From sequence record SRR22947727_1297: a stretch of 41,686 nt of DNA, one strand, 5' to 3'. The position numbers and the translations under genes were made by a program. This document shows positions 17,265-41,686 of the stretch, piece by piece. Below the pieces are notes generated by a model that worked only from the letters and a program-made list of their open reading frames with translations, made no database searches and was not told the DNA's origin. How positions within the stretch are numbered: position 1 is the first letter of the stretch; each line of letters starts with the position of its first letter.

Positions 17265-17293
17265 AGTTACTACTTATTAATTTAATTTAATAT

Positions 17294-17322
17294 AATATAA
17301 GAAATTTATTACTAATCTTCAA
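17294..17322 (-). promoter_or_regulatory. Putative promoter, TTGAAG-N17-TATATT
   Basis: Same motif family; upstream of the dehydratase start at 17264. Confidence 0.65.
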
Positions 17323-18259
17323 CCTTAAATACATCTTCCCAGGTAGAAGATTTATGAGAAGGATTAAAAAGATTATAGCAGTTTTGTTCACACATTTTAT
17401 TAGCTTTGTCATACCAAACGTGAGTGCTTCTTTGAGCTCCAGGATTGGTTTTGTCTAAACCCTCTTCACCTTTTATGTTAGTTCTTTTATCCGGATGCTT
17501 TCTATTATGAACTACTAAGATATTTTTAAAATGGTATTGAGGAATATTACCTAAAACTTTCTGAGACATAAAAAGAAATGCTGTGTCTTCATGAACAAAG
17601 AAGACAGATTTAGGAATATTAACTCCGGCTTTAACCACTTCCGAGCTTATTATTAATCCGCAACCATTAAATTTATGAGGTGATACTACATTAACTTCTA
17701 GGTCTTCTACTTTATTATTAAAAGTATCCATCTCTTCTTTTATCATAGTATAACGTAGACTCCACCAGTTTTCAGTATCCATTTCAATAAATGGTTTATT
17801 TGTAAACTCTGGATGTTCTAAAGGTTTCCATGAGTCGTCCCACATCTTACATATGGCGAAGGTGGCTAAATACTTAGGTGTGTTAACGTTTTGATGTAGT
17901 GAGTCAAGAACTATAAAAGCTTGTTTAGGAACTAGCATGTCAGTTTCACCCCAAACGAGTACGTCTACCTGAGTACAGTACTTGTCGTTAAACTCCCTTC
18001 TATAATCAGCAATGGTATATAGACTATCTACTACTCGAAGATTAGCAAAGCTACAAAGAGACTTAATTTTAGATACCTGCTCATTAAATATCACATCGGA
18101 GGACGGCTTCTCTAAATCTGTATTTACAACTAAAGCTATATCAACTACTACTTCTCCGTTATAGCTCTCAACTGCATCTTTTAACGATTCAATATAAAAT
18201 TCTATTATCTCTGATTCATACCACTGAACCAGACATCCTATAGCAAATTTAGTTTTCAT
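17312..18259 (-). CDS. Putative GT-A glycosyltransferase
   Basis: WGETDM (DxD-like), FVHEDT, VHNRKH; cluster context. Confidence 0.5.
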   Translation of the reverse strand: MKTKFAIGCLVQWYESEIIEFYIESLKDAVESYNGEVVVDIALVVNTDLEKPSSDVIFNEQVSKIKSLCSFANLRVVDSLYTIADYRREFNDKYCTQVDVLVWGETDMLVPKQAFIVLDSLHQNVNTPKYLATFAICKMWDDSWKPLEHPEFTNKPFIEMDTENWWSLRYTMIKEEMDTFNNKVEDLEVNVVSPHKFNGCGLIISSEVVKAGVNIPKSVFFVHEDTAFLFMSQKVLGNIPQYHFKNILVVHNRKHPDKRTNIKGEEGLDKTNPGAQRSTHVWYDKANKMCEQNCYNLFNPSHKSSTWEDVFKVED

Positions 18260-19982: not shown

Positions 19983-20727
19983 ACAAATACTTATATGTTT
20001 TTTCCATCCAGTAAGGTACGGATACGTCCTTATCAGGCAGACCGTTAAAATGCATTACGTAGCCTGCTTTAGTGTGCATCATATCTTCGTTAACTACCTC
20101 TTTAGCAGCAAGACAGCTCATGTTAAACTTATACGGTAACGCTTTAGTAGCTATTTTTTCTTTCCTAAGTAGGTAGTTTAGAGGAGTTTGATCAGTACCA
20201 ACGCCGTAAGTCTTTTGACACCAGAGTATATCATTAACGTTTGCTGCGTAAAACTCTCTCATAGTATTGAAAAACGGTCTATGAAAATTATTAACTATTT
20301 GAAAGCCGCTATTAAAATATTCATACCAATTAAAGAGTGGTTCGTCTTTAAAGAGATGATGCTTATAGTTCTCCATTGATCTAATGATCCAATCAAAGTC
20401 TCCATCGTCATGTACTAAGCAATACTTATCCTCAGTAAGTTCAAATATATCAGGACAATCTGGATGAACGATGGTGTCGGCATCTACTATTAATATTTGA
20501 TTAGCATCTATTTCGTTATGATCTAAGATATCAAAAAGAAAATATCTTTGCCAAATAACTCCCATAGCTTTAGGATCAACTATTGGTTCTTCCAAAAGGT
20601 AAAGCTGATGATTGTACTTATTGCAAAAGGATCTCCAGCTATCAATAGAGTACTGGTACTCTTTCTTAGTCTTACCGTCTTTCTTAATATCAATTATAAA
20701 AACTATATTATTCATATAAGTGTCCAA
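19975..20727 (-). CDS. GT-A glycosyltransferase (GT8/GT34-like)
   Basis: VDADT, YFNSG, DQTPLN, HFNG. Confidence 0.8.
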   Translation of the reverse strand: MDTYMNNIVFIIDIKKDGKTKKEYQYSIDSWRSFCNKYNHQLYLLEEPIVDPKAMGVIWQRYFLFDILDHNEIDANQILIVDADTIVHPDCPDIFELTEDKYCLVHDDGDFDWIIRSMENYKHHLFKDEPLFNWYEYFNSGFQIVNNFHRPFFNTMREFYAANVNDILWCQKTYGVGTDQTPLNYLLRKEKIATKALPYKFNMSCLAAKEVVNEDMMHTKAGYVMHFNGLPDKDVSVPYWMEKTYKYLYG

Positions 20728-21460
20728 AATTATCCCAAACCTGTTTCATAATAGAAATTCTGTTCTCTATAGGGAAGCCTGTGAAGTGCCAAACGTAAGC
20801 ATACTTAATAAAGAATGGAGTAGTGTCTAAATTAAGTTGCCAGTTATGTTTAAACATATTTTTTTTATGTATAGAAAATAAATTCCAGGAAGGAGGTAAA
20901 AATTTAATAGGGGTTTTAGTTTTAACTAATTCTAAATTTAATAACGTTTGAACTTTACCTACTCCTTTAATTACGTCAAGTTCATTACTCCTCTCTTTAT
21001 AAAGCTCAATCAAGTTATCATAAATGTGTCTATGTGCAGGAGTAAAGAAAGTTACTCCACTATTAATGTACTTATCTAAATCTATTGTGATTGAATCGTC
21101 ATAAAATTTACTATACTGATTAATAGAGTTCATAACCCACCTTAGTGAACCTCTATCGACAACCCCACAGAACTCATCTGTATAGAGATCAAAAGGATTA
21201 GGTGCATCCCATTTTACCATAGTATCCGAATCTACATTTCCAATCTTATCGTACTTATCGCCTACTATTTCAAAAATGCGATCTTTATTCCATACTGGGA
21301 ATTTATATCTTTCGTCATGTTCGGAAATGACTAAAAAGTCTATATTATTCTTTGAACACCATGCTTTCCAGCTATTAATAGCGTATTTACTATAATCAGA
21401 ATTTAAAAACTCAGAGGTGCTATGATTAATAGCAACCATGTAAATTAAATTTTTGGACAT
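20708..21460 (-). CDS. GT-A glycosyltransferase (GT8/GT34-like), paralogue of its neighbour
   Basis: VDSDT, YINSG, QTLLN, HFTG; 250 aa like the neighbour. Confidence 0.8.
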   Translation of the reverse strand: MSKNLIYMVAINHSTSEFLNSDYSKYAINSWKAWCSKNNIDFLVISEHDERYKFPVWNKDRIFEIVGDKYDKIGNVDSDTMVKWDAPNPFDLYTDEFCGVVDRGSLRWVMNSINQYSKFYDDSITIDLDKYINSGVTFFTPAHRHIYDNLIELYKERSNELDVIKGVGKVQTLLNLELVKTKTPIKFLPPSWNLFSIHKKNMFKHNWQLNLDTTPFFIKYAYVWHFTGFPIENRISIMKQVWDNFGHLYE

Positions 21461-21463
21461 ACA

Positions 21464-22090
21464 CTATAAAGTTTCGTAATAAGCGTTCTGTTTTTCTTGT
21501 CTTTCAATAGTCTTTGGATGATATAAAGCAAACTCTTCTTCCATCGGCAAAGTAGCATACTGGTTAAATCCTTCCAGTCTCTCATGTACTTTATTTACCC
21601 ATTTTATACTGGGGTCGTTTCTATATATTCTCCATTGGTAGTCAGGCCAATTAACCCATTCCTTTTCGTTAACACTCCATTTCCATTTTGCTATATGGTC
21701 TTGAGTAAGACCTTCTACTGTATTAACTCTGGGGACTAGCATTACGTCAACGTCTCCGTTCATTTCTAAAAGAAAGGGAAGAGTATCAAGTAGCTCTTCA
21801 TGAGGCATTTCATCAGCATCTATCTGGAATATGAAGTCTTTGGTGCAGTAACCGGTTAGTAAATTTTTCCAGTCGGCAAAATGGCTGTTGAAATAACCTC
21901 TCCATATCTGGAAGTTAGGAAGTTTGTTTTTCTTTCTTAGTATGTCTACTATCTCCTGGTCTCCGTTTTTTTGATCAAACAGAACTACAACTTCGTCGTT
22001 TGGACGTTTTTTAGACATTAGAAAGTCTACAAGCTTTAGTACCTCTTCTTTTTCATTACAAACGGTAATAGCATAACTTATGGAAATCAT
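21464..22090 (-). CDS. Glycosyltransferase family 2
   Basis: ISYAITVCNE, FADWKN, IDADE, PDYQWR, W.NKVHE. Confidence 0.88.
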   Translation of the reverse strand: MISISYAITVCNEKEEVLKLVDFLMSKKRPNDEVVVLFDQKNGDQEIVDILRKKNKLPNFQIWRGYFNSHFADWKNLLTGYCTKDFIFQIDADEMPHEELLDTLPFLLEMNGDVDVMLVPRVNTVEGLTQDHIAKWKWSVNEKEWVNWPDYQWRIYRNDPSIKWVNKVHERLEGFNQYATLPMEEEFALYHPKTIERQEKQNAYYETL

Positions 22091-22524
22091 ATTTTATAGA
22101 ATTCGATATAGTCAAGTGCATCCATAAAATCTTTTTTACCAAAAGCTTTAGCACCTTTCATATCCATTTTGTAGAGTTGCCCCTCTGGGTATTTATCTTT
22201 TTCTTCTTCTAAGATACGAACGGCCCTAGCAGCTTTCCAACTCCAATTTCGTTTATCTGTACCGTCGATAAATACCATACCTTTTTCCGGAATAGATATT
22301 GTAGCCGGAAACCAGACCAGGCCTTCTTTTACAACTGATAAATCCTTGTAAAGGTCAGGAGATGTTTCTTCAGTCTCTTTTACCAGGTCTAATCCTTTCT
22401 TCATTAATGTAGAAGTTGACATACCGCAACCAAAACAGAGGTATGTTGTAACGTTTTGTTCTTCTAATACTTGTTCGTAGCAGGCATTCCCACTACATAT
22501 TTTACATGTAATTAAATTATCCAT
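22087..22524 (-). CDS. Hypothetical protein with N-terminal Zn-ribbon
   Basis: CKIC...CFGC. Confidence 0.65.
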   Translation of the reverse strand: MDNLITCKICSGNACYEQVLEEQNVTTYLCFGCGMSTSTLMKKGLDLVKETEETSPDLYKDLSVVKEGLVWFPATISIPEKGMVFIDGTDKRNWSWKAARAVRILEEEKDKYPEGQLYKMDMKGAKAFGKKDFMDALDYIEFYKI

Positions 22525-23791
22525 CTATCTTTTTTAACTTAGGTAATTTAAGTTTAGGTAGGTTGAGCTCTACCTGCTGGGCAAATTCAGGTACATTTTT
22601 AGTTAAAATGTTCTCTACTAATTCAACCATCTTTTCAAAGCTAAAATTATTTTTAGTATGCATTTTATGCTTACGAGATTTAGTAACAAGACTCTTATAG
22701 TCTTTAAATGATTGCTTCAGAGCCGTACCTACCTGACCGTCGTCAGGTTTAAACCAACTTGATTCTTTTAGTAGTACTTTTTCTACAGAAGCTGATGGAT
22801 GTACTTTTTCAAGTTCTCCACCGATAAGCATGGTATAGTCTTTATGTAAGAAATCTAACTGACCTGACCATCCTGATGCTATAATAGGCTTACCGGTTGT
22901 AGTGAACTCCAGTAATGGCCTACCGAAGCCTTCTCCTTTATTAAGGCTCAACATCACTTTAACTTTAGGATGGTTGTATAAGCCATTTATTTCTTGATCG
23001 GACATTTCACCATGGAGTAGGTAGATGTTAGGCAGGCTGCCTTTTACGGTTCTACGTATTTGATCTATCTTATCGAGAATAGTTTCTCTGTCAATAATCG
23101 ATGTACCTACTTGATGCGTCTTTAAAAGTAATGCCGGTGGTTTGCTCTTATTTTTGAAGGTCTCTAAAAAGGCTTTAATGGTATAGCCAATATTTTTTCT
23201 ATCATGACCGAAGTCTCCTTTCATCCAATGACCAACTACCAGGTAACAGAACGATTCAGGTATAGGTAAGTCAACAGAAGTTACATCTTTATCTTGGTAC
23301 TTAGTTAAATCTACTCCCTCAAATACAACTTCAACCGGAGTAGTTAACTTTAACTCCTGTTTTTGTTTTGTTTTATTATCCTCTATGGTATAAATTGTCT
23401 GTTCAAAGACTCCTTTAGAATGCTCTGAAGATGTAAGTATAATGTCCATATTATTACATCCTTGTATCCATTCTGCAGCACAAATAGTAGTCTCTATACC
23501 TGCAGTTACTCCAATATTATATTTACCTACTTTTTGAAATTCATTAGGTACTGAGATCTGCATCCATACATCCGGTTGAGCGGTGAGGTTAGGGACGATT
23601 CTGGCTCTAAGGTCTGATTCGTTATGATCTTCTAAGTACCCGAATCTTGTATTACCCCATCGTTGAGATAGAATTTTGACATCCCAGTCAGGTTTAGCTT
23701 TAATTATAGCTTTAACTAAATCACGGCTACGGGCTCCATAACCGGAATAAGTATCTATTGGACAACTTATTACGCAACTTGCTTTACTCAT
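22517..23791 (-). CDS. GT-B glycosyltransferase, family 4-like
   Basis: SGYG, DRKN, KGEGFGRPLLE...GKPIIASGWSG..DFL. Confidence 0.88.
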   Translation of the reverse strand: MSKASCVISCPIDTYSGYGARSRDLVKAIIKAKPDWDVKILSQRWGNTRFGYLEDHNESDLRARIVPNLTAQPDVWMQISVPNEFQKVGKYNIGVTAGIETTICAAEWIQGCNNMDIILTSSEHSKGVFEQTIYTIEDNKTKQKQELKLTTPVEVVFEGVDLTKYQDKDVTSVDLPIPESFCYLVVGHWMKGDFGHDRKNIGYTIKAFLETFKNKSKPPALLLKTHQVGTSIIDRETILDKIDQIRRTVKGSLPNIYLLHGEMSDQEINGLYNHPKVKVMLSLNKGEGFGRPLLEFTTTGKPIIASGWSGQLDFLHKDYTMLIGGELEKVHPSASVEKVLLKESSWFKPDDGQVGTALKQSFKDYKSLVTKSRKHKMHTKNNFSFEKMVELVENILTKNVPEFAQQVELNLPKLKLPKLKKIDG

Positions 23792-23793
23792 TC

Positions 23794-25242
23794 TTAATAT
23801 CCAAAAAGGTTATGTGTTATATATTTTCTCGGTCTATCTACTGCTTTATGAATTTCGTATCTAGGACGAGGTATAAATTCTTCAAAGCCTCTATCACAGT
23901 ACTCTATAACTCTGTTAGCCATTTTTATAGCTGTAAAACCGGCTTCTTCTGACCTAGCCCACTCCCGGCCGGCTATTCCTCTTTTCTTTCTCTCTTCTGG
24001 TCCTAAGTTATATGTAAACTCTAAAGCAGCTCCTACGTCTTCAATACTGCATCTATCGTCAAAGATATAAGGAGTAGGAGGAGAACCTACCAGAGATCTA
24101 TTTGATGGAAAGACAGGTACTGCCCACTCACCATGTTCTTTAACAGAACCTAAATGGTTAGATGGAAATTCAGGAGTAAAGTCAATCCACTTCCCGTCCT
24201 TAGCAAATCTCATTTGATCCTGCATACCGCCGGTAGCGTTAGCAATAATCATAGTACCGGTCATCATAGCTTCGGTTAAAGATAGCCCCCAACCCTCATT
24301 AGAGGAAATAAGCACATTTACATCAGCTATATTATAAAGTAAGTTCATTTGCTCTGATGCTAATTTCTCTCTGGAGAAGAAAACATTTACGTACTCTGGG
24401 TCGCAGAATGCTTCTTTTACTGCATATAAATCCGTACCGTTATTATCAACCGGAGATGTATGCATTACTAAAGCACACTTCTTAGCCTTTTCTTTTCCTA
24501 TTCTATCACAGAAGTTTCTGTAAGCCAGGATTACATCACCCGGGCTCTTACGTCTAATATTTCTAGAATTATAGAAAGCTACAAACTCTATCTCTTTATC
24601 ACCAAAAATATTGTTTCTAAAGTTTTGATATTCTTCATATTGTTCAAACGATTCATCGATAGGAAAGAAAAACTTCTCATTTATACCATGAGGAACATAT
24701 TCAATAATTTTATCGTCAGCATACTCACCTAGAACTATCTCATTAATATTTTTAGTCTGTTTTGAAATAGCTAACAGTACGTCTACTGAGTTATAGAAAT
24801 TTTTATTGTACAAAGGAGCTGGATAGTCGTCCCAGATGTTAAGGTAGAAAATAGGTATCTTGCTTCTAATCTCTCGTTCTATTTCAAATAACCATACCCA
24901 GTATCTAGGGTCGGTAAAAAGAAATAAAGCGTCTGGTTTCTCCATTTTAATTAACTGACGAATCTTCATAGCATCACCGTACCCGGAGCTAGGAATAATT
25001 TTTACACTAGCGTCCTCTATACCGGCATGCTTATTTACATCCTCTGATATATCAAATGCTTTCCCTTCTTGGTCATGTTTAACAGCACCACCTAAATTAA
25101 CCCAGTTAAAGTGGTGGGCACTATTAATTACAATCTCTCTTGCCATCGTACCGACACCGGAGTGTAATCTTATATCGTCAGAGAGAAGAAGTATTTTTTT
25201 TCTTTCTTCTTTAGGTAAAAAACGAAACTTATCTTTCATCAA
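23794..25242 (-). CDS. GT-B glycosyltransferase, family 4-like
   Basis: SGVG, VPHG, SRNIRRK, SNEGWGLSLTEAM..G..IIANATGG. Confidence 0.88.
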   Translation of the reverse strand: MMKDKFRFLPKEERKKILLLSDDIRLHSGVGTMAREIVINSAHHFNWVNLGGAVKHDQEGKAFDISEDVNKHAGIEDASVKIIPSSGYGDAMKIRQLIKMEKPDALFLFTDPRYWVWLFEIEREIRSKIPIFYLNIWDDYPAPLYNKNFYNSVDVLLAISKQTKNINEIVLGEYADDKIIEYVPHGINEKFFFPIDESFEQYEEYQNFRNNIFGDKEIEFVAFYNSRNIRRKSPGDVILAYRNFCDRIGKEKAKKCALVMHTSPVDNNGTDLYAVKEAFCDPEYVNVFFSREKLASEQMNLLYNIADVNVLISSNEGWGLSLTEAMMTGTMIIANATGGMQDQMRFAKDGKWIDFTPEFPSNHLGSVKEHGEWAVPVFPSNRSLVGSPPTPYIFDDRCSIEDVGAALEFTYNLGPEERKKRGIAGREWARSEEAGFTAIKMANRVIEYCDRGFEEFIPRPRYEIHKAVDRPRKYITHNLFGY

Positions 25243-30721: not shown

Positions 30722-32368
30722 TTATCCTAACAGCATCTCCGGCGATATCTCTCCGGGGCTGTCCTCTTCATCAATGTTAGAGATAACGGCTTCAGTCGTT
30801 AACATGGTTCCGGCTACCGAAGCAGCGTTCTCTAACGCCAATCTTGTAACTTTGGCCGGATCTATAATACCGGCTTCATACATATCTACGAATTCTTCCG
30901 TACGTGGATTATATCCGAACCAAAGATTCTCTTCTTTGATAATTGTTTCCTGTTTTATTGCTATGGAGAGTTTATCACCAAATGCATTATGGAGAATCAA
31001 TTTAAACGGAGTATTTAAGCACTGGGTTAGAAGCATATAGCCGATTTTTTGGTCTGGATGTCCAAATCTTAGTTCTACTTCTTCTAATAGAGTTTCAAGA
31101 TGTTGCTGGGCTCTTAGTAAGGCTACACCTCCGCCTGGGAGAATACCTTCTTCCAAGGCTGCTCTTGTGGCATGTAAGGCATCTTCAACTCTATCTTTCT
31201 TTTCCTTCATTTCGATCTCTGTATGACCGCCTACATGAAGTACTCCAACTCCGCCTACCAATCGTCCTAAACGTTCCTGTAGCTTTTCTATTTCGAAAGG
31301 AGATACGGAATCATCTATAAGAGCTTTAATAGTTTCCACTCTTTCTACGATAGCTTCTTCAGTACCTCTACCGTCAACGATGGTTGTATCATCTTTACCA
31401 ACGGTTACCTTTCTCGCTTTACCTAACCACTCCATATTAAACCGATCAAGTTTCATTCCTTTCTCTTTAGAAATTACTTGACCACCAGTAAGAACGGCTA
31501 TATCTGATAAAGCTTCTTTCTTTCGATCTCCGTACTCAGGAGCTTTAACTGCTACTACGTTAAGGATACCTCTCATTTTATTAACAACAAGAGTACTTAA
31601 TGCCTCTCCGTCTATATCATCTGCGATGATTACGAGAGATTTATTTTGACTAGAGCAAGCCTCAAGTAGTGGTAGAAGTTCTTTTGCCTTAGTGATACGT
31701 TCTTCTGCAATTAATATGAGAGGATTCTCTAATGTAGTCGACATCGTTTTGTTATCTGTAACAAAGTACGGTGACTTATATCCTCTATTGAACTGCATAC
31801 CTTCTACTGTCTCTAAATAAGTTTCACCGGTACGGCTTTCTTCAATAGTAATTACACCGTCCTGGCCTACTTTATCCATAGCCGTAGCAATTAATAAACC
31901 TACTTCTTCATCGTTATTAGCTGAGATAGTAGCTATCTGCTCTAATTGAGATTCAGATGTAATCTCTTGAGATAGATCTTGAAGAAAGTCTACAGTGTCT
32001 ACTACTGCTTGATCTATACCACGTTTAATATCCACGGAGTTATGATCGGCTAAAGCCTCAAGGCCGGCATTAAAAATTTCGGCTGCAAGTACGGTTGAGG
32101 TAGAGGTACCATCACCGGCTTCGTCGGCCGTCTTAACGGAAGCTTCTCTTACAAGCTGTGCTCCCATGTTCTCTATCTCATCTCTTAGCTCTATAGACTT
32201 AGCTACTGTTACACCGTCTTTGGTAGATGAAGGATTGCCTTGAGATTGCTGTATAATAACTGTACGGCCGTTTGGTCCTAAAGTAGCGCCTACGGCATTA
32301 CTAAGTATGGAAGCACCTCTACTTAAAGCATCTCTAGCTGATTCAGAAAACGTTACTTCTTTTTTCAT
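30722..32368 (-). CDS. groEL: Chaperonin GroEL
   Basis: [69 protein letters not shown]. Confidence 0.97.
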
Positions 32369-32679
32369 ATTTCTTCTACCTCTATATCTTCTTCTACGAT
32401 TGCTAATATTTCTCTGTCTTGTACTATGTAGAACTCTTGACCTTCTAGCTCTACTCTTATAGAACCTATTTTAGGTACTAGAACTACTTGACCTACTTTG
32501 GCTTTAACTGGTATGTGCTTACCAAACTCGGACATACGTCCGGGACCGGCTGCTATAACCTCTCCCATTTCCGGTCTTTCTTTCCCCATATCCGGTACAA
32601 TTATATTCCCATATAACTGTTCATCCTCTTCAATAGGTTTAACGACAACTCTGTCGTTAGCAGGATTTAATTTTTTCAT
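32365..32679 (-). CDS. groES: Co-chaperonin GroES
   Basis: LNPANDRVVV, GNIIVPD..KERP..GEVIAAGPG, KVGQ.VL, EILAIV. Confidence 0.95.
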   Translation of the reverse strand: MKKLNPANDRVVVKPIEEDEQLYGNIIVPDMGKERPEMGEVIAAGPGRMSEFGKHIPVKAKVGQVVLVPKIGSIRVELEGQEFYIVQDREILAIVEEDIEVEEI

Positions 32680-32986: not shown

Positions 32987-33015
32987 AATATAAGAACTTT
33001 TAAAATAAAAATCAA
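32987..33015 (-). promoter_or_regulatory. Putative promoter, TTGATT-N17-TATATT, upstream of the orf-groES-groEL operon
   Basis: Same motif family. Confidence 0.65.
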
Positions 33016-33034
33016 CCCCAGGGCGGGTCGTAAC

Positions 33035-33445
33035 CTATTTTATTTTGAGTGTTCTTGGCTTAGAAGACTCGGCGAATGGAACATCTATAATTAGTAAGCC
33101 ATTTTTGTAGGTAGGAGTTGCCAAACCTAAATCAAACTTACTTGCTATTTTTATACCTAGATCGAATGCACGTCTGGATATAGTACGATGGTGGTAGTTT
33201 CTACCTTCTTCATCCTCGTCATTTTTAGTATGAACTATTTTAAGTAGACCGGATGAAACTGAAGCATGTATATCTTCTTTGTTAATACCGGTGCAAGCTA
33301 CCTCTATATGTAAACCGGTACTATCTTCATAGATGTCTACTGGGTGGCTGTATTTAGCTTGATGCACAGGAAGAAAAGAACCCTGGCTGTTAAAGAAATC
33401 CTTTATAAGGATATCGAAAGGAGTAGTGAGAAATAAATCACTCAT
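33035..33445 (-). CDS. Small heat-shock protein (Hsp20/alpha-crystallin)
   Basis: PVDIYE, IEVACTG..KEDI, YHHR.ISRRAF, YKNGLLII.VP. Confidence 0.9.
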   Translation of the reverse strand: MSDLFLTTPFDILIKDFFNSQGSFLPVHQAKYSHPVDIYEDSTGLHIEVACTGINKEDIHASVSSGLLKIVHTKNDEDEEGRNYHHRTISRRAFDLGIKIASKFDLGLATPTYKNGLLIIDVPFAESSKPRTLKIK

Positions 33446-33547
33446 GTTTTTACCTCTGTATGTTTTGTTCCCCTAAGGTGAACGTTTGTGTTATGTTGTT
33501 AAAAAAATCGCCCTGGAGTCGATAATTTGATATAAATATATGAAAGT

Positions 33548-34168
33548 TTAGGAAAATTTCCAACCTTGTTTATTAGCATGATGACAATAGTAGCCGTTAT
33601 CTTGAATTTCGTCTTCAAACATAAAGATCCTAGAATAGCTACATTGGTCAAGCCACATCGATAGAGATATAGGACCAAACGGTTCGTACTTTCTAGAATA
33701 ATCTACATCAGTTCTATTTTTAGCAAACTCTATTAACTCCCCAAAGATACCCGGTTTAGCATAAACAAGCATATCATCGTTACGTTTAAAGTCTCTTTCC
33801 TTCTCTCTAGGAAAGGAACGAACCGGAATAAAAAGGTCAACGTCGGTGACATTGTTTTTCTTAAATTTATCTGTTATAAGTTCATCTAGTGTACGGTTCC
33901 ACATTATATCTAGATCTACATACCAACCGCCATACTTATCTAAAATAGAATACTTTACAAAGTTATATTTGTTAATAAAAGTTTTTAACTCATAAAATTC
34001 TTCTAACTTATCTTCTAGTCTTAAAAAATATTCTATATCAGGAGGAGTCCAGAGTATAGTTTTATAAGATGGATGCTTTTTTACAAAAGAACTATAACAA
34101 TCATTATAGAACTTTGGAAGACTTCCTAACGAAAAGAATATAAAATGAGCTAATGGCTTAGTGCCCAT
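33548..34168 (-). CDS. DXD glycosyltransferase (Gly_transf_sug/GT32-like)
   Basis: HFIF, HPSY..ILWT, ILDKYGGWYVDLD, FGP; start overlaps the polymerase end. Confidence 0.8.
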   Translation of the reverse strand: MGTKPLAHFIFFSLGSLPKFYNDCYSSFVKKHPSYKTILWTPPDIEYFLRLEDKLEEFYELKTFINKYNFVKYSILDKYGGWYVDLDIMWNRTLDELITDKFKKNNVTDVDLFIPVRSFPREKERDFKRNDDMLVYAKPGIFGELIEFAKNRTDVDYSRKYEPFGPISLSMWLDQCSYSRIFMFEDEIQDNGYYCHHANKQGWKFS

Positions 34169-36488
34169 CCCGCCAATTATCAGATATTTCCGGAGGAGCT
34201 TTAAGAGTTACTCCTTCAAGTTGAGTAGTCTCTTCCATAAGCTTTTGAACGATAGGAGCAAACTCTTCTGCTTGATCTTCTCTTACGTTAATGATCAACT
34301 GATCATGCACTTGAGCTTGTACTACGGCGTCAATACCTATCTCTTTGGCTTTACGATTAATCTGTACGGCGGCACGGTTAACTACGGCAGCAGCTAGAGA
34401 CTGTAACTGAAAGTTAAGACAGTTGTTAAGTCCGTTACGGTAGTCACGGTACACTTTCATAACTTTGTCTTTATCGTATCTCTGTTCTAGCTCTTTTCTA
34501 AATCGCCAGTCAAGAATCTTTTCACCAAACTTCTCTTGTACTCTTTGAACTTTAGGCAGGTGACGGATACGGCCTACTTTATTCTTTATAAAGCCGTAGT
34601 TCTTAACCTGCTCTCTAGAGTTAACACGCCATTCCTTTAGCTGAGGGAATCCGTTTAAGTAACCGTCTACAAGCTTTTCTGCTTCTTTAGTAGGTATCTC
34701 TAAGGTTCTGCCGAGAGCATATGCCTCCATCCCGTAAGCAATACCTAACGAGTATGCCTTAGCTTGGTTACGTTTGACTGGGTCGACTTTCTTCAAGAAG
34801 TTAGGAGCAGATTTATCGGCACTTACGCCTTCAAGCTTTTCAGTTTGTATGGCTACCGTAGAGTAGAAGTCGTAATTTTTATTAAAGATCTCTCTAAGCC
34901 TTTCATCTCCGGATACAGAAGCAAAGCAATGCGGTTCTAAGGACTCGTAATCAGCATCAATAACCTTACGTCCTTTACCGGCAGTTAAGAAGGCTCGTAC
35001 TATATTCGTATAACGAACTATAATAGGAGCATCTTCACCTTCTTCTTTAGGTTTAGGTAACTGCTGGGCATCTGAACCATAGCGTCCTGATACAGTACCG
35101 TTCTGTTTAAAGTAAAAATAGTACCTACCATCTTCAGCACCGTCTATGAAACGGTCCACGTAGGTAGACTTGATCTTGAGTAGTTTGTTGTAAACTCGAA
35201 GGTTTTCGGCCCAGTCATATTTCTTTGATAAGACTTCGAGCATTCCCATGTCGAACTGATCTTGACCTTTTGACGTTTTGGAGATAGCTTCTTCTCCAAT
35301 ATATTTAAATACGATTTCACCGAGATGCTTTTTAGATTGAATGTTTATAAAGTCGCCGTCGTTTTTTTCTTTCCATAAGTTAGTAGATATACGTAGTACA
35401 TCGTTAGCTTCTAGATGATCTAAGTCACCGGAAAGTAGAAAGTTCTTTATGTTAGTAGGACAGTCTTCTTCTTCTAGCTCTTCAATACGTTTCTGGGTTA
35501 GAGAATACTTACCGGTCTTTTCGCTTTTAGGTAGGTTAACCGAAAACATCTTAACCAGCTCTTGAGCCCAGTTACCTTTATTATTAGGAGGGAACTCTCT
35601 TAAAGAAGTATCTATTACCCAGTTCTTAGCCTCAGGTATCTTAAGAAGACTCTCCATAACAATCTTACGATTGGCTGCTAAATCGGCTTTTATCTCCTCA
35701 TTAGTCTTTTCAAGTAACTCCATATCTAAGTCTACTCCAAACTCCTCCATAGGTACGGTAACTTCTTTGTAGATAGGCATTACTTCTTCATCGAAGAAAA
35801 ACTCTTCTAGACCTTCGTCTTTAAGCCGTTCCAGGTAGAGGTAACAGATACGTAAAGTTAGATCAGTATCGGCGGCAGCATACTTACCTAAGATATCTAA
35901 GTCGGCTTTATAGATCTCAAAGTTGACTTTAGTTATCTCGCCACCGTTAGCTTTAATAGACTCTTTTAGTTCTATCTGCTCTTTGTTAGCATCCTCTTCA
36001 ACATCTAGTCCAAGTTCTTTCTGGTTCATAATAGCTATCGATTTTAGTCCAAAAGGGTTACCAAACCCGAAGGCACCCTCCTCGTAGACCGTATGAACCA
36101 GTAAAGCGGTATCAATCCATAAGTCTTCTAATAGATCAACACCGTAATAGTTTTTAGTAAACCGGGTATCAAAAGAAGCATTATGCATTACAAGCTTCTT
36201 ACCTTTTAGCATAGGTAGCAGAGTCTTAGATATCTTATGAGCTCCGGTACCGCTAATCATATACTCGTCAAGGGTTTGAGTATCCGGGTTCCAGACCTGA
36301 GTAGGGAGATAGTATCCCATACCTACGTCACCGGAAACCGACCAACCGACTATAGATCCCTTTCTCATATTAAGACTATCGGTCTCAGTATCGTACGCTA
36401 TTACGTCAGAAGCTTCAATATGCTTCATCAGTTCCAGTACGTCTTCCTTCGTTCTTACGATCTTATAACTTTTATTTAATTCTTGCAT
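34158..36488 (-). CDS. polA: Family A DNA polymerase with 3'-5' exonuclease, phage type
   Basis: Exo I YDTET, Exo II HNASFD, Exo III YAAAD; GTVSGR; motif A DADYESLE; motif B RNQAKAYSLGIAYG; motif C QVHD. Confidence 0.95.
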   Translation of the reverse strand: MQELNKSYKIVRTKEDVLELMKHIEASDVIAYDTETDSLNMRKGSIVGWSVSGDVGMGYYLPTQVWNPDTQTLDEYMISGTGAHKISKTLLPMLKGKKLVMHNASFDTRFTKNYYGVDLLEDLWIDTALLVHTVYEEGAFGFGNPFGLKSIAIMNQKELGLDVEEDANKEQIELKESIKANGGEITKVNFEIYKADLDILGKYAAADTDLTLRICYLYLERLKDEGLEEFFFDEEVMPIYKEVTVPMEEFGVDLDMELLEKTNEEIKADLAANRKIVMESLLKIPEAKNWVIDTSLREFPPNNKGNWAQELVKMFSVNLPKSEKTGKYSLTQKRIEELEEEDCPTNIKNFLLSGDLDHLEANDVLRISTNLWKEKNDGDFINIQSKKHLGEIVFKYIGEEAISKTSKGQDQFDMGMLEVLSKKYDWAENLRVYNKLLKIKSTYVDRFIDGAEDGRYYFYFKQNGTVSGRYGSDAQQLPKPKEEGEDAPIIVRYTNIVRAFLTAGKGRKVIDADYESLEPHCFASVSGDERLREIFNKNYDFYSTVAIQTEKLEGVSADKSAPNFLKKVDPVKRNQAKAYSLGIAYGMEAYALGRTLEIPTKEAEKLVDGYLNGFPQLKEWRVNSREQVKNYGFIKNKVGRIRHLPKVQRVQEKFGEKILDWRFRKELEQRYDKDKVMKVYRDYRNGLNNCLNFQLQSLAAAVVNRAAVQINRKAKEIGIDAVVQAQVHDQLIINVREDQAEEFAPIVQKLMEETTQLEGVTLKAPPEISDNWRDGH

Positions 36489-36947
36489 TTATTTTAATCT
36501 ACAATCTTTAGGTATAAAATCTCCATTATCTAATGTTTTTAGAGCGTGGCAGTTTTTACATAGGAGGCGATAATTATCTGGATGTTCGCCTTCAAGAGTA
36601 TGTTTAATATCGGAATTTATATGATCAACATCAACTAAAGTTGCTAACTCCTCCAAAGTTCTATCGGGATAAATATCCTTAAGGTTTATCTTACAGTCTT
36701 CGCAAATAAGTTTACCTTTATTATAGGCTTGTATTTTGTAGCGAAGATGAGGTCTAGAAGATGCGTTAGAGCAAATAGTATTAGAAAAGTGCTCACTACA
36801 GTACTTAGTTTTCCAATGTACATCACTAGCTATAACATTAGAACAGTAGTGAAGATTACACTCTCTTCTTGTATTACTATAATGTCTTGCATCTATGATT
36901 GGAGTATCTCTCACATCAAAACCTAAACTACTTAAAAAACCGCTCAT
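36489..36947 (-). CDS. HNH endonuclease
   Basis: CEDC...DVDHI...DNYRLLCKNCHALKT, plus an N-terminal Cys/His cluster. Confidence 0.85.
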   Translation of the reverse strand: MSGFLSSLGFDVRDTPIIDARHYSNTRRECNLHYCSNVIASDVHWKTKYCSEHFSNTICSNASSRPHLRYKIQAYNKGKLICEDCKINLKDIYPDRTLEELATLVDVDHINSDIKHTLEGEHPDNYRLLCKNCHALKTLDNGDFIPKDCRLK

Positions 36948-36971
36948 TTTATATAACCTCTTATTTTATTT

Positions 36972-37607
36972 TTACTTAATAGAAGATACTATCTCGTTTA
37001 CTATTTTGACTATAGGGTTATTCAACTCAGTATCTCTTAAACCAATTTTATAGCCATACCCATGTAAATTTAAAATATTCCATCCGTATAAGTCTTTTCT
37101 TAATTCACGTACTGCCGACCTCATTTCTTTGTTTTTCATACTTTTACGAATCTCACGTTCAGTAACGTATTGGTAACCGTTGCAGATGTTAATTTTAAGT
37201 ATATGGTAGAAAACTCTAAAAGCATGTCTATCGAAAAATTTATCTTTTCCTAATCTAGATAAAGTACCATCACCATTGGTTTTAACTATTGTTGATATAG
37301 CAACTAATTCTTTTAACATCTCTAAAGGAGGCCTTGTTGCTAATTTTTGTTTCACTTGTACGTCAAATCCTAATTTGGCTAATTCCGCATTAAGTTGTAC
37401 TCTAAGCCATTCTACTGGGTATGTATTTGCGAGTTGACCATTATCTGCTGTTTGTTGACCAGTTTGTACGCCTTGATCAGCTGCGGCTGCTCGTATAGAG
37501 TATAAAACCTTATTATACTTATCACGACCTAGGTCATTATAGACTAAGTTAGCCCAAGCTTTTTTGCTACCTAAATCTTCTACGATAACATCATAAATTG
37601 ATTTCAT
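36972..37607 (-). CDS. Hypothetical basic protein
   Basis: 211 aa with its own promoter motif upstream. Confidence 0.65.
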   Translation of the reverse strand: MKSIYDVIVEDLGSKKAWANLVYNDLGRDKYNKVLYSIRAAAADQGVQTGQQTADNGQLANTYPVEWLRVQLNAELAKLGFDVQVKQKLATRPPLEMLKELVAISTIVKTNGDGTLSRLGKDKFFDRHAFRVFYHILKINICNGYQYVTEREIRKSMKNKEMRSAVRELRKDLYGWNILNLHGYGYKIGLRDTELNNPIVKIVNEIVSSIK

Positions 37608-37657
37608 ATAACTTATTTTAGTTTATAACTTAGTTAGATTATCTAACTCTTTAATTA

Positions 37658-37686
37658 AATATAGGAAGTATATATATGAAAAGCAA
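37658..37686 (-). promoter_or_regulatory. Putative promoter, TTGCTT-N17-TATATT
   Basis: Same motif family. Confidence 0.65.
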
Positions 37687-37929
37687 CTAGTACTCCCCAT
37701 ACAAATCCCAGACTTCTGGTTCTGGTTCCGGAGCATCTACTTCTTTTATAGCATATAATTTTCCATCTAAAGGTGCAAGTCTATACTCGCCTTTGAACTT
37801 AGTTTTACGTAAGTAAGCCGTTAACGTATTTACTAAACCTTCAATGATTTCATCATCACCATCAACCAAAGACCAATTGTCTCCAGGCGGTACTCTTGAT
37901 GCAATTAATTCTAGATTTTCTTCTATCAT
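37687..37929 (-). CDS. Hypothetical protein
   Basis: 80 aa, ATGA-coupled to queF. Confidence 0.65.
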   Translation of the reverse strand: MIEENLELIASRVPPGDNWSLVDGDDEIIEGLVNTLTAYLRKTKFKGEYRLAPLDGKLYAIKEVDAPEPEPEVWDLYGEY

Positions 37930-38840
37930 TGACGTAAAGTTTTCTTTAATCTTACTGATTCGCTAAAAAATGCTCTAGGAATCATTTCCTGAGATGTGGC
38001 ACGGATAGGATTAATATCTAATCCGCCTCTTCTAGTATAGAGACAGGATACCATTAATTCGTCTGGTTCATATGCTTGCATTAAATGAGTGAATACCATC
38101 TCGTTTATCTCTTCGTGGAAGTGAGATACCTTTCTATGACTTACAATATATTCTGCTAGAGAAGTATAGTTAGGTTCGTTCTTTCCTACCATATGAATGA
38201 ATATATCACCCCAATCCGGTTGATTGGTAACCCGGCAGTTTGAACGTAAAAGATCTGACTGTATCTTAAACTCTTGGCCGGTTTCATGAACCTTAGATGT
38301 TTTCAGAGAATCTGCATCTGAGTAATAGTTATCGAACTCGATCATATCTAAGTCAGTCAAATACTGAAGTTTGGTAAAACCTTGAAAGTGAAAGCTTTCA
38401 GATGCTTCATCAGTAAACATTTTAGTAGCTACTGAACGTCCAAGTAGTAAAGTTAGGTCTTTAGCTACTCTTGCTTCAAAGATACTAATAGCTTGTTCGG
38501 CCGTATCTCCCATCCGAGTCATATTATACGAATTGAGGTATAACTTAATTGACTTACTTTCTACGTGAGTAATAGAGCTTGCCGGACATACAATCTTCAT
38601 CATACCTGATACCGGGAGTCCTCTGTGAGTAAGTACGCTGACTTCGTATGCATTCCAAACATCATATCCGAAGAACGGTAAGTTATTATCATCTATACCG
38701 TAAGCTTCTCTATTTAACTTACGAGGTATTCCTACTAATAGCCCGGGATCGTATTGATCTTTATAGCCGTCACCGCCAACTTTACCTAAATGCTTACCAG
38801 CAATTTTGGTTACTTCATTATAATTCTTTACTTCGCTCAT
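37926..38840 (-). CDS. queF: NADPH-dependent preQ0 reductase QueF, bimodular type
   Basis: WNAYE.S, QueF motif VESKSIKLYLNS, catalytic LLRSNC.VT.QPDWG, FHE, YTRRGGLDINP. Confidence 0.95.
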   Translation of the reverse strand: MSEVKNYNEVTKIAGKHLGKVGGDGYKDQYDPGLLVGIPRKLNREAYGIDDNNLPFFGYDVWNAYEVSVLTHRGLPVSGMMKIVCPASSITHVESKSIKLYLNSYNMTRMGDTAEQAISIFEARVAKDLTLLLGRSVATKMFTDEASESFHFQGFTKLQYLTDLDMIEFDNYYSDADSLKTSKVHETGQEFKIQSDLLRSNCRVTNQPDWGDIFIHMVGKNEPNYTSLAEYIVSHRKVSHFHEEINEMVFTHLMQAYEPDELMVSCLYTRRGGLDINPIRATSQEMIPRAFFSESVRLKKTLRQ

Positions 38841-39358
38841 TTAATAAACTCCATAATTTGATCGACTCTCTGCATAGGGGAGCCAGTTATTGTTAATCTT
38901 TTATAGTCTGGTAGTAGTTCTAATTGTTCTATAAAACCTTCATCTACTTTACGTCTCCATTTTTCATTAACGCTTCTTACTCCATCATCTACTGCGTCAA
39001 ATTCAATAGGAAAGTAAATATAATGAGTATACTCGTCTTTAACTCTATTCCAAGTATTTTGAATAAAAGCTTTGGTATTCATTCTAACGTTAGGTAGATT
39101 TCTAGTATAAACTACTAGATCCATATAACATCTGTCTAATACTAAGTTATAGGGTTTAAGTAAAGCTTCTAAATGAAAACTACTGATGGCTAGTTGAGTT
39201 GCATCAGTACCGTTCTCGTTTATAGCAAAATCATATTTTTTAACTGAACGAGTACTTTCGTTTACAAACTCGTACTTAGGTAATTTATTCTTTAATAGTT
39301 CATAAACAGTAGTCTTACCTGTACTAGAACTTCCAACTAATGCTATTCGTTTAACCAT
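38837..39358 (-). CDS. P-loop nucleoside/nucleotide kinase (AAA_28/NadR/dNMP-kinase-like)
   Basis: GSSSTGKTT Walker A, LVLDR..D, DDGVR lid. Confidence 0.8.
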   Translation of the reverse strand: MVKRIALVGSSSTGKTTVYELLKNKLPKYEFVNESTRSVKKYDFAINENGTDATQLAISSFHLEALLKPYNLVLDRCYMDLVVYTRNLPNVRMNTKAFIQNTWNRVKDEYTHYIYFPIEFDAVDDGVRSVNEKWRRKVDEGFIEQLELLPDYKRLTITGSPMQRVDQIMEFIK

Positions 39359-39942
39359 GTAATCTCCTCAAAGAATTTTATCCATAAATCTAACGATGCC
39401 TCTGTTAATATACGATAAGTATCTTCTAACTTCAAGCCTTTTAAGCTTACTTCTTGAAATAGAAGGATAGGTCCTTCGTCAAGTTCAGGAGTAAGCTCAT
39501 GTATCACTGAACCTCCGATATCATAGTTACCTAAGTACGCTTTTAATTGAGGATCTTTTCCTCTTAGCTCTGGATACTTAGTTATTAAACCAGGATGTCC
39601 ATTAAATGCTTGATACTTAAAACATAACGTAGCAGGAACTATTCTTAACCATCCATGCATCGTTAGTATCTTATCTCTATGCTCATACCCTACTGCGTTT
39701 ATATAATCGTGAACGGTAGGTCGGTTTACGGTATGAAAGATTTTATGCTTATAATTTTTTAATAGCCAGGGATTACCTTTCTCTTCTAACTGTTCTGCAG
39801 TTAGGTTAGTTATAATCCTATCAGGCACTCTACCGGTTTGCTTAATAATATTAGCAAGTTCGGTACCAGTTTGACTAAAGAAAGCACACCACTCCTTAGC
39901 CTGTATAGTTCTTAAGTTTCTTATTCCTGTTTCGTGTATCAA
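39343..39942 (-). CDS. dpdN: PurN-like 10-formyl-THF-dependent formyltransferase, probable preQ1 formyltransferase
   Basis: FFSQTGT, GWLRIVP, catalytic NGHP, GSVIH...ELDEGPIL; sits between dpdA and queF. Confidence 0.8.
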   Translation of the reverse strand: MIHETGIRNLRTIQAKEWCAFFSQTGTELANIIKQTGRVPDRIITNLTAEQLEEKGNPWLLKNYKHKIFHTVNRPTVHDYINAVGYEHRDKILTMHGWLRIVPATLCFKYQAFNGHPGLITKYPELRGKDPQLKAYLGNYDIGGSVIHELTPELDEGPILLFQEVSLKGLKLEDTYRILTEASLDLWIKFFEEITWLNE

Positions 39943-40751
39943 AATAAACTAGCCTCCGGTTTGTTCCAAAATGTTCTGAATCGCTGTATATTCCAAAATG
40001 CTCTATTATCTATAGGAGCTGGAGTATTGATAAGTTCAAATAACTTTTGACTTTCTTTATCCCATAATCCTTGGTCTGAGTATTCAATTCCTTTCATTCC
40101 ATGTACTACCGGGTTAGAAGTATCCATAGAATAAATCCAATCGTAGTCCGAATGCTTATAAAAGAGTCCTTCTTGAGGTAAACCTACTCCGAGTAAATGA
40201 TGCTTCATATTAGTATCAATTACTCCGTCATATAACATTCTACCCAGTAAAGCAGGACGTCCTAACATCCAACTAACGTACTTGTTTGTATGAGGAGCTG
40301 TCCATTCGTAGTAGGAGTAATCAAACGAAATAGCAATCATATCTACATTTGCCTCGTTCTTCATATAGTTATAACAATCAACTATTTCATCATATTCCTT
40401 ACCTTGAACTACTCCTATCTTCCCGCTACCTTCATAACCTAACCCTCTGTTATTCCAATCCTCCATCTGATCGATAGTCTTGTAAGCATCCTCAAGAGCA
40501 TCTGGAACTATATACCAAGTAGGTTTAAGATAGTTAATCCATTTATCAAACTTATCGGCATCAAAAGCTTCTTCTAATTCAAAAATAGAATTATCTAATA
40601 TAACCTCTCTACCGTTCTCTAATGCTTCCTTGAAGAGGTTAAAGTATTCTTCGTCTTCTTCAAACAAATGAACTAATGCATAGTCGTAATCGGTATAGTT
40701 CTGAACTTTTTTAAATATAGACTTTGGAGACTCATGAGCTATTTTTATCAT
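39939..40751 (-). CDS. dpdA: TGT-fold deazaguanine transglycosylase, DpdA (probably DpdA3-like)
   Basis: ILDNS..E, IVPD, IGVVQG, HHLLG, SMDTSNP are spaced like TGT barrel motifs; no tRNA-TGT Zn site; folE/queF context. Confidence 0.75.
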   Translation of the reverse strand: MIKIAHESPKSIFKKVQNYTDYDYALVHLFEEDEEYFNLFKEALENGREVILDNSIFELEEAFDADKFDKWINYLKPTWYIVPDALEDAYKTIDQMEDWNNRGLGYEGSGKIGVVQGKEYDEIVDCYNYMKNEANVDMIAISFDYSYYEWTAPHTNKYVSWMLGRPALLGRMLYDGVIDTNMKHHLLGVGLPQEGLFYKHSDYDWIYSMDTSNPVVHGMKGIEYSDQGLWDKESQKLFELINTPAPIDNRAFWNIQRFRTFWNKPEASLF

Positions 40752-40951
40752 TCAGCATCTCCTTCTGCTATCTTACGTATTGCCTCATTTACTTCTGATA
40801 CAGATTCTTGTATAGAGCTGAGGGCTAGATTGAATTTATCTGTATATAGTTCTTCGACTATCTTACGAACTACGGATACCGGAAGTACTTCTGTTTGAAG
40901 TTCGTTACTAAAGGACTTACTATCTTCTATTAATTTTACTATATTATGCAT
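40748..40951 (-). CDS. Hypothetical protein
   Basis: 67 aa, overlaps both neighbours. Confidence 0.6.
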   Translation of the reverse strand: MHNIVKLIEDSKSFSNELQTEVLPVSVVRKIVEELYTDKFNLALSSIQESVSEVNEAIRKIAEGDAE

Positions 40952-41486
40952 TTTTAACTCTATCTATTTCTTCTTGGGTGAAAAATTGCTTAAGATTAGG
41001 TCTAAAGTAGTTTATAGATTTCATAACTTTATCGTCAGATTTTCTATAGACTACCCATACATCTCCTACCTGTTTGGTATAACAAGGACCATGCTCGGGG
41101 ATACGGGCCTGAATAGTTTGGTTAGCTATCTCATAAGTTTCACAAGTCTTAGACATATTAGAAGCTTGAACTTCTTCGAATGCAGCCATTAACTTATCTT
41201 TCAAACCAAATACCATAGTAGCATTTCCGATAGCCACGTAAAGTAAATCGCAGATACCGTCTAATACTTCCACTATGTCTCTATTCTCAATAGCTTCTTC
41301 TAACTCTTGAGTCTCTTCCTTTATAAAATCTATTACAAAGTTTATAAGTTTTTCGTCTTTGGGTATAACCGGGGTATAGTTATTTGGCTTACCAAACGTA
41401 TCGTTAAAAATTTCTACTTCAGATACGAAAGGTACATAGGTAGACTGTTCTGGTTTTTCTGTAAATAGGTCTAACTGTTCATTCAT
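40944..41486 (-). CDS. MazG-like / PRA-PH all-alpha dNTP pyrophosphohydrolase
   Basis: IKEETQEL...EVLDGICDLLYV (EExxE...ExxD...D), AFEEVQASNMSK, KVMK. Confidence 0.85.
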   Translation of the reverse strand: MNEQLDLFTEKPEQSTYVPFVSEVEIFNDTFGKPNNYTPVIPKDEKLINFVIDFIKEETQELEEAIENRDIVEVLDGICDLLYVAIGNATMVFGLKDKLMAAFEEVQASNMSKTCETYEIANQTIQARIPEHGPCYTKQVGDVWVVYRKSDDKVMKSINYFRPNLKQFFTQEEIDRVKNA

Positions 41487-41686
41487 CCTCTACATACTCC
41501 TGCTAGTTCTATGTTTTTATAAAATTCTGCTCTTGCAGCATCTTCTTCTAGAAAGCATCCGGTTAATTTAGCCGTCTGCATAGAAGCTCCATGATGCTTA
41601 ACTCCTCTACAGCTTACGCAATTATGGGTAGCATCTATCATTACGGCTACTCCAATATTACCTTCACATATCTTATCTACTGCATT
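41483..41686 (-). CDS. folE: GTP cyclohydrolase I, C-terminal part (partial at the right edge)
   Basis: Hand translation ...GVAVMIDATHNCVSCRGVKHHGASMQTAKLTGCFLEEDAARAEFY...*, matching the FolE H-x-C-x-x-x-RG and R-x-EF motifs. Confidence 0.9.
   Translation of the reverse strand, partial: NAVDKICEGNIGVAVMIDATHNCVSCRGVKHHGASMQTAKLTGCFLEEDAARAEFYKNIELAGVCRG

Follow-up and report, generated by a model that had tools for sequence, protein, structure and literature searches.

A stretch of 41,686 nt from sequence record SRR22947727_1297 (the window) carries, towards one end, a run of genes around dpdA3, which is predicted to encode a small guanine transglycosylase with the fold of the tRNA-guanine transglycosylases (TGTs). 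The window genes are all on the minus strand. The original prediction had read this region as a pathway that makes an alternative G nucleotide before replication; the genes it named were found where it had placed them, and the pyrophosphatase-like gene (PF01503) and the kinase-like gene (PF13521) indeed lie within the deazaguanine operon. In the order of transcription, the features are (lengths in amino acids, aa):

40944-41486, minus: MazG/PRA-PH-like pyrophosphohydrolase, 180 aa (PF01503, 42.3 bits, cut-off 21.3; phrog_671, labelled 'nucleotide pyrophosphohydrolase', 1.8e-30).
40748-40951, minus: orf67, a small protein of 67 aa between the MazG-like protein and DpdA3, with no credible Pfam or PHROG family.
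39939-40751, minus: predicted DpdA3, a minimal TGT-fold guanine transglycosylase, 270 aa (no Pfam match; phrog_19058; homology to phage immuto, see below).
39343-39942, minus: predicted DpdN-type formyltransferase, 199 aa, TTG start (PF00551, 28.6 bits, cut-off 26.1; phrog_9240).
38837-39358, minus: AAA_28 P-loop kinase, 173 aa (PF13521, 49.5 bits; phrog_2107, labelled 'thymidylate kinase').
37926-38840, minus: bimodular QueF, the predicted preQ0-to-preQ1 reductase, 304 aa (PF14819, 107 bits, and PF14489, 61 bits; phrog_5949).
37687-37929, minus: orf80, a conserved small protein of 80 aa downstream of QueF, with no Pfam or PHROG family.
36972-37607, minus: orf211, 211 aa, with no Pfam or PHROG family.
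36489-36947, minus: HNH endonuclease-like gene, 152 aa, directly upstream of PolA (PF01844, 18.4 bits, below the cut-off; phrog_5956).
34158-36488, minus: family A DNA polymerase (PolA) with a 3'-5' exonuclease, 776 aa (PF00476, 196.6 bits, and PF01612).

Overlaps of 4-16 nt join neighbouring genes along seven genes, from the MazG-like gene through orf80. The distance between the queF stop and the polA start is 1437 nt, in agreement with the 1.4 kb originally estimated. We scanned positions 33000-41686 for promoters and terminators and found no convincing minus-strand terminator between the MazG-like gene and polA; promoter-like sites were fewer than in the shuffled expectation, the scan consensus being ill-suited to Bacteroidota. 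The preQ0 genes folE, queD, queE and queC are absent from the window, which stops 200 nt upstream of the MazG-like gene.

In Flavobacterium phage immuto_2-6A (immuto), dG is absent from the DNA, which instead contains 345,000 residues of 7-(formylamino)methyl-7-deazaguanine (fdPreQ1) per 10^6 nucleotides (Cui, Hutinet et al. 2023, PMC10516641; this and the other papers given below by PMC number are cited from parts of their text). The same authors named the transglycosylase subfamily DpdA3 and the immuto gp204 protein DpdN. The window DpdA3 shares 69% identity with immuto DpdA, annotated 'DNA guanine transglycosylase', and 39-40% with the proteins of the Campylobacter CP220 group, in both cases over at least 95% of the length. 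Gene order is also the same, running in immuto from hydrolase gp208 through gp207, DpdA3 gp206, DpdN gp204, kinase gp203, QueF gp202 and PolA gp199 to GroES and GroEL. Identities between the two are 56% for the MazG-like protein (gp208), 62% for the kinase (gp203) and 69.5% for PolA (gp199). As the fdPreQ1 pathway expects, DpdN and QueF accompany DpdA3 in the window, in the immuto order; the formyltransferase, in the position of gp204, is 35-52% identical in relatives. The window differs from immuto by the additional HNH-like gene and orf211 before polA and by the missing small gene gp205. The folE, queD, queE and queC genes of immuto sit upstream of the point that matches the window end, and the same applies to many related loci. 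No nucleotide-level match of the window to any phage record was found.

Because of its homologous and syntenic relation to immuto, the DNA of which has been analysed chemically, the region is securely predicted to be a DpdA3/DpdN-type module that swaps all genomic guanine for fdPreQ1. The chemical analysis of fdPreQ1 was of immuto DNA only. We conclude that the window is an uncultured relative of immuto and that the gene cluster itself is already published (PMC10516641) and not new, so that the novelty originally suggested is overstated; a modified-dGTP route 'as proposed for Campylobacter phages' is also mentioned in Hutinet et al. 2019 (PMC6884629).

The DpdA3 residues D53, N54, D84, Q116, H185, G188 and D210 are invariant (D53, D84 and D210 in 40 sequences). 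Going by motifs, D53, D84 and D210 may correspond to the catalytic aspartates of TGT enzymes. The phiST DpdA3 matches the window protein weakly (24%, E 0.7), yet the invariant motifs align. An AlphaFold2 model of the window protein (predicted local distance difference test, pLDDT, 93.2; predicted template modelling score 0.91) gave top Foldseek matches that were all tRNA-guanine transglycosylases (E 7e-8 to 4e-6, template modelling score ~0.6), and the DNA preQ0 insertase DpdA (7ui4) ranked 29. Thus, by model and by sequence comparison, the 270-aa protein has both a TGT-type TIM-barrel fold and homology to the DpdA3 subfamily. A search of the ESM Atlas gave the same families only. Two proteins of 447 aa from a profile search (P0071 and P0075) are natural fusions of DpdA3 with a C-terminal, DpdN-like formyltransferase, which physically tie formylation to base exchange. 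At another locus (L168, 4980-6639), tandem DpdA3 paralogues of 265 and 289 aa are followed by DpdN, an open reading frame (ORF) of the DUF3310 family, and QueF.

To place the gene order in a wider context, we used 80 IMG/VR loci whose DpdA3 is 62-75% identical to that of the window. The order MazG-like gene, DpdA3, DpdN, kinase, QueF, PolA is kept in the immuto genome and in these relatives, which argues that the arrangement is not due to chance. The kinase was found in 74 of the 80 loci, the other six ending within ~1.4 kb of dpdA3; the MazG-like gene was found in 78 and PolA, within the fetched flank, in 65. By tblastn, orf80 matched in most of the relatives. There was no tblastn match to orf67 in the 80 loci, and immuto gp207 (66 aa) occupies the same place. 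The HNH-like gene was matched in two relatives (L025 and L026) and orf211, which is specific to the window, in none, so that both look like recent inserts; the HNH-like gene is probably a mobile one.

Since these 80 relatives represent a single lineage, sampling was extended. Among cultured phages, phiST has the order MazG, DpdL, an AAA_18 'ATPase' (gp041), DpdA3 and then a polymerase. In CP220, DpdA3 is followed by the AAA_28 kinase gp057, which is 32% identical to the window kinase (E 4e-16). Aeromonas phage Ahp1 has a DpdA3-like gene followed by a T4-type deoxynucleoside monophosphate kinase (DNMK) and a dCTP-deaminase/dUTPase-like gene, and in Chryseobacterium phage MA9V-3 an AAA_18 gene is located immediately upstream of DpdA3. 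The wider metagenomic sample comprised 185 IMG/VR loci, 182 of them with a DpdA3 ORF (14 clusters at 50% identity) and 118 with at least 3 kb on both sides of it. Within 3 kb of DpdA3, a kinase-type gene was present at 112 of the 118 full-flank loci (11 of 14 clusters) and a MazG- or dUTPase/DCD-type gene at 83 (8 of 14 clusters). One or the other was present at 116 of these loci and both at 79.

The kinase slot is occupied by four unrelated families: AAA_28 (window, immuto and CP220 gp057), AAA_18 (phiST gp041 and MA9V-3), T4-type DNMK (Ahp1) and the T7 gp1.7-type DUF3310. In a sub-lineage with DpdA3, DpdN and QueF that seemed to be kinase-less, a small DUF3310 ORF was located in the exact slot of the window AAA_28 kinase, and in the Ahp1-like lineage a DUF3310 ORF overlaps the DpdA3 stop codon. 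These ORFs match PHROG families labelled 'nucleotide kinase'; DUF3310 is a domain tied to T7 gp1.7 (PMC10700055), a protein that phosphorylates dTMP and dGMP (PMC11897194). A profile search of 1.84 billion representatives yielded 5287 DpdA3 relatives, and fusions were sought in the best 150 of them. Among these 150 are DpdA3::DUF3310 fusions (P0025, P0099 and P0135) as well as the formyltransferase fusions described above. DpdL::AAA_18 fusions occur in phiST-like contigs, one above the Pfam cut-off (L088) and one below it (L089); for longer forms (L089-L091 and L149), the kinase support is weaker or comes from hidden Markov models (HMMs) only. Beside its DpdA3-like gene, Ahp1 has diverged copies of a DNMK and a dUTPase whose canonical forms (168 and 85 bits, respectively) are encoded elsewhere in the genome. 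CP220 has two AAA_28 genes, one of which adjoins DpdA3, and no AAA_28 gene was found in the dI-containing Fletchervirus NCTC12673, which is without DpdA3. The CP220 protein gp055 (HD and AAA_33) was considered as a third hydrolase-type partner and rejected as evidence, because homologues occur near RNA ligase in Fletcherviruses that have no DpdA3.

Loci with other DpdA types served as controls. Within five cultured DpdA1/2 clusters, no gene was annotated as a kinase or NTPase, and none of ten unannotated neighbours had such a Pfam family. At 21 DpdA1/2 control loci, phmmer gave no match and the more sensitive HMMs gave two (L133, and L131 with a 374-aa AAA_28-like ORF). The comparison called for by the original prediction thus came out at a kinase in 112 of 118 DpdA3 loci and any match at all in two of 21 DpdA1/2 loci. 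We fetched a further 79 non-A3 DpdA loci and counted 77 (26 clusters), with no true kinases and two dUTPase-like genes. Matches of the AAA_18 HMM, which also picked up the DpdL domain of fusions, were sorted by length and by inspection of the hits; four such matches in non-A3 loci were discarded as DpdL-like T-fold proteins without a P-loop. In L245, L246, L248 and L251, whose non-A3 DpdA genes are related to that of Streptococcus phage Dp-1, DpdL-like T-fold genes were noted 2-3 kb upstream of DpdA. A further test disregarded family and asked for a small ORF on the same strand, within 3 kb, that has a Walker A motif at its N terminus; 93 of 118 DpdA3 loci had one, and none of 60 controls did. 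Taken together, these counts show a genuine association of DpdA3 with a nucleotide kinase and a dNTP-hydrolase-type gene, one that reappears from lineage to lineage with unrelated enzyme families and is largely missing from other DpdA types.

The window kinase and its immuto counterpart owe the name 'thymidylate kinase' to PHROG or depositor labels only. The window kinase gave no match to the thymidylate-kinase family PF02223 at E <= 0.01, nor did the immuto record, so that by profile the protein is outside that family, as the original prediction required; its predicted fold is shared with thymidylate and deoxynucleoside kinases. An AlphaFold2 model (pLDDT 86.9) best matched deoxyadenosine kinase (2jat), the ribosylnicotinamide-kinase domain of NadR, thymidylate kinases, dGK, dCK and dNK. 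All Foldseek matches listed are kinases of free nucleosides or nucleotides, with the exception of Fap7, a putative adenylate kinase. Judging from the model, the AAA_28 protein of the window is a kinase of free nucleosides or nucleotides. The MazG-like protein matched PF01503 only and not the trimeric dUTPase family PF00692; it is therefore not a plain trimeric dUTPase by profile, and dUTP is still a possible substrate. When solved structures were searched by sequence with the MazG-like protein, the kinase and a DpdA3 profile, nothing usable was obtained (best match: a putative adenylate kinase, E 0.005), and for the MazG-like protein no solved relative was detected, including MazZ or any MazG. 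By its profile, this protein is a candidate all-alpha nucleoside triphosphate pyrophosphohydrolase for the conversion of dGTP to dGMP.

The original prediction also assigned a dedicated PolA to the pathway. The window PolA has the immuto protein as its closest cultured relative, the next ones being less than 30% identical. The DpdA1 phages 9g and CAjan also have a polymerase gene next to dpdA, and the polymerase beside the phiST DpdA3 is annotated as DNA polymerase III alpha and not as PolA. No polymerase family was thus found to travel with DpdA3 (PolA here, DNA polymerase III alpha in phiST), and the idea of a dedicated PolA is without support. Going by homology, the window PolA is the phage replicase of its lineage, and a special polymerase is not required by the evidence. 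Just downstream of polA in the window, as in immuto, follow genes for an Hsp20-family protein (33035-33445), GroES (32365-32679) and GroEL (30722-32368). A DXD-motif glycosyltransferase-like gene (33548-34168, PF04488) overlaps the polA end by 11 nt; nothing is annotated there in immuto.

In phage T4, hydroxymethylcytosine enters DNA by a nucleotide-level pathway of gp56 dCTPase, gp42 dCMP hydroxymethylase and gp1 dNMP kinase. There, a dNTP pyrophosphatase removes the normal base from the pool and at the same time yields the dNMP, which a second enzyme modifies and a kinase of the phage then rephosphorylates. By the same logic, the DpdA3 phages may swap the base on free nucleotides before replication, the reading that we consider most likely, at about an even chance. 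The MazG-like enzyme would cleave dGTP to dGMP, thereby purging G and supplying the substrate. DpdA3 would then exchange guanine for preQ1 on the deoxynucleotide, or possibly on the deoxynucleoside, with preQ1 coming from the upstream preQ0 genes and QueF. The aminomethyl group would be formylated by DpdN and the modified nucleotide phosphorylated by the AAA_28 kinase; a host diphosphate kinase would complete the triphosphate, which the phage PolA would incorporate. Both the substrates and the order of these steps, from dGTP hydrolysis and exchange on dGMP to formylation and rephosphorylation, are our inference. DpdA3 might then be, with the scales evenly balanced, the first TGT-fold enzyme to exchange the base of a free deoxynucleotide or deoxynucleoside, the modified dGTP being made by a relay of hydrolase, exchanger and kinase. 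In such a route, a dNTP hydrolase would be a frequent accessory. Non-orthologous displacement in one slot, the fusions and the dedicated paralogues argue, circumstantially, that the kinase is part of DpdA3's job. Of the pathway first proposed, the linkage of kinase and NTPase genes to DpdA3 has stood, and the dedicated polymerase and the novelty have not.

Two published observations speak for the nucleotide-level route: DpdA3 expressed with DpdL in E. coli gave no product, and cells infected with CP220 are reported to contain the ADG nucleoside in their cytoplasm (both PMC10516641). Our literature searches on a pre-replicative deazaguanine route returned no proposal of a nucleotide substrate for DpdA3. 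The DpdA3 model is uninformative on whether the substrate is DNA or a nucleotide: its charge and missing CxCxxC zinc motif were considered as signs of lost DNA binding and discarded, as DpdA1 of 9g and CAjan is equally acidic and also without CxCxxC.

Aminoadenine (Z) genomes are made by MazZ, DatZ, PurZ and DpoZ, and the likeness to the present module is that one base is replaced genome-wide and that a MazG-family enzyme is in the cluster. In contrast to the Z system, no co-travelling polymerase family was found here, no sequence relation to a solved MazZ or MazG was detected, and the deazaguanine is made as a free base and then swapped in, whereas Z is built on the nucleotide. The likeness to T4 extends to a gp1-type DNMK paralogue beside the DpdA3-like gene of Ahp1; T4, however, makes a C5 substitution, whereas a base exchange by a TGT-fold enzyme is proposed here. 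The DpdA1 and DpdA2 phages and the bacterial DpdA/DpdB system likewise have a TGT-fold transglycosylase clustered with preQ0 genes. In contrast to the DpdA3 phages, DpdA1/DpdA2 systems have almost no kinase or NTPase neighbours and modify 0.1-30% of G, and the bacterial enzyme (bDpdA) needs the ParB-like ATPase DpdB (PMC10516641 and PMC10164549).

In the published view, DpdA3 works on DNA that has been replicated and is a transglycosylase of unusual efficiency, exchanging each G there, with DpdN formylating preQ1 before or after insertion. We consider this a serious possibility, if short of an even chance. It is the conclusion of the authors themselves, who, in the paper defining DpdA3, declare all these modifications to be post-replicative; the cited parts of their immuto account assign no role to the hydrolase or the kinase (PMC10516641). 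The fold of DpdA3 is that of TGT enzymes, and its characterised relatives all act on polymers, bacterial DpdA having been reconstituted on DNA (PMC10164549). Under this view, the MazG-like protein and the kinase could, at the same somewhat lesser likelihood, be general pool enzymes that stand in for a dUTPase/dCTPase and a thymidylate kinase, and their proximity may (this, too, is rather less than an even bet) reflect nothing but the clustering of nucleotide-metabolism and replication genes in phages.

Several of our findings fit this account and count against base exchange on free nucleotides. To our knowledge, every characterised TGT or DpdA enzyme acts on polymers, and we know of none that acts on a free nucleotide. 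The immuto genome has a single kinase of these families and no trimeric dUTPase (PF00692/PF22769), so that its MazG-like protein and kinase could be housekeeping enzymes. Whether relatives lacking dpdA keep the same genes had a mixed answer. Streptomyces phages encode distant AAA_28 homologues (28-32% identity) away from any deazaguanine context, and one CP220-group paralogue, in CPt10 (gp006/gp007), places an AAA_28 kinase beside an ordinary dUTPase, away from DpdA3. One gene upstream of another DpdA3 (L209, 3423-4451), a single ORF of 342 aa encodes both a trimeric dUTPase domain (79 bits) and an AAA_28-like kinase, the latter scoring slightly below the cut-off (25 bits). Such pairing and fusion with ordinary dUTPase fits a role in the dTTP pathway. 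Deazaguanine genes are also found amid general nucleotide metabolism, with thyA in MA9V-3 and ribonucleotide reductase in L150 inside or beside the cluster. Six full-flank DpdA3 loci are without a kinase (L150, L151, L164, L166, L167 and L186), and 35 of the 118 have no recognised NTPase. One control, L133, which has a DpdA1-like protein (40% identical to 9g DpdA), carries adjacent MazG-like and DUF3310-like ORFs (2355-3097) ~2 kb upstream. Moreover, the search HMMs were trained on DpdA3 neighbourhoods, with only the Walker A test blind to family, and the loci are non-independent, being mostly close metagenomic relatives with at least six contigs fetched twice.

What the published view leaves unexplained is the pattern of neighbours. 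DpdA1/2-type clusters, which are also located in replication modules, almost never have them; diverged second copies stand beside DpdA3 despite a canonical DNMK and dUTPase; four unrelated kinase families share one slot; and a kinase domain is fused to DpdA3 or to DpdL.

For preQ0 insertion into DNA, bacterial DpdA depends on DpdB, which has to hydrolyse ATP (PMC10164549), and the P-loop protein of the window could similarly be an ATP-driven helper that gives DpdA3 access to guanines in duplex DNA. The tight linkage would suit an obligate partner. We nevertheless regard such a helper as very unlikely, because the kinase model resembles kinases of free nucleosides and nucleotides, with Fap7 as the exception among the matches listed. 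In addition, DpdB is a ParB-like NTPase and not a P-loop kinase (PMC10164549), and either a T4-type DNMK or the T7 gp1.7 domain DUF3310, which has no P-loop, can occupy the same slot.

It is just as improbable that the modification is pre-replicative without any action of DpdA3 on a deoxynucleotide, a phosphoribosyltransferase-like enzyme of immuto joining the deazaguanine to phosphoribosyl pyrophosphate, with kinases and ribonucleotide reductase leading on to the dNTP, and there is equally little to recommend the other role, e.g. repair of residual G, that DpdA3 would then have: the short immuto gp211 between queE and folE (L001, 6843-7238) matches PF00156 (35 bits) and the window has a ribonucleotide reductase, but the transferase gene lies outside the window, could equally salvage guanine released by exchange, and is not, as DpdA3 is, common to all fully substituted phages (PMC10516641).

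The ribonucleotide reductase gene (4263-6116, phrog_367) adjoins a gene for a 395-aa protein of phrog_9968, labelled methyltransferase (3055-4242). Elsewhere in the window, a minus-strand gene run (8904-25242) looks like a block for sugar or glycan biosynthesis inside a phage, judging from six of ~20 ORFs scanned. Its members include glycosyltransferase-like genes (22517-23791 and 23794-25242), an aminotransferase-like gene (14433-15626) and a gene with a GtrB-like N-terminus (8904-10076).

If DpdA3 does not exchange bases on free nucleotides, the window simply adds an uncultured relative to the phages of a published system. Given the comparative pattern, three or four purified proteins would be enough to test the question directly. 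If true, the route would explain why replacement is 100% in DpdA3 phages and 0.1-30% in other DpdA phages, and why attempts to obtain active DpdA3 in E. coli, where its partners were missing, did not succeed. It would be a new reaction type for the TGT superfamily, and the few enzymes involved could be used to prepare 7-substituted 7-deaza-dGTPs and fully substituted DNA. The DpdA3 phages would then possess the G-counterpart of the T4 hydroxymethylcytosine and Z-genome pathways.

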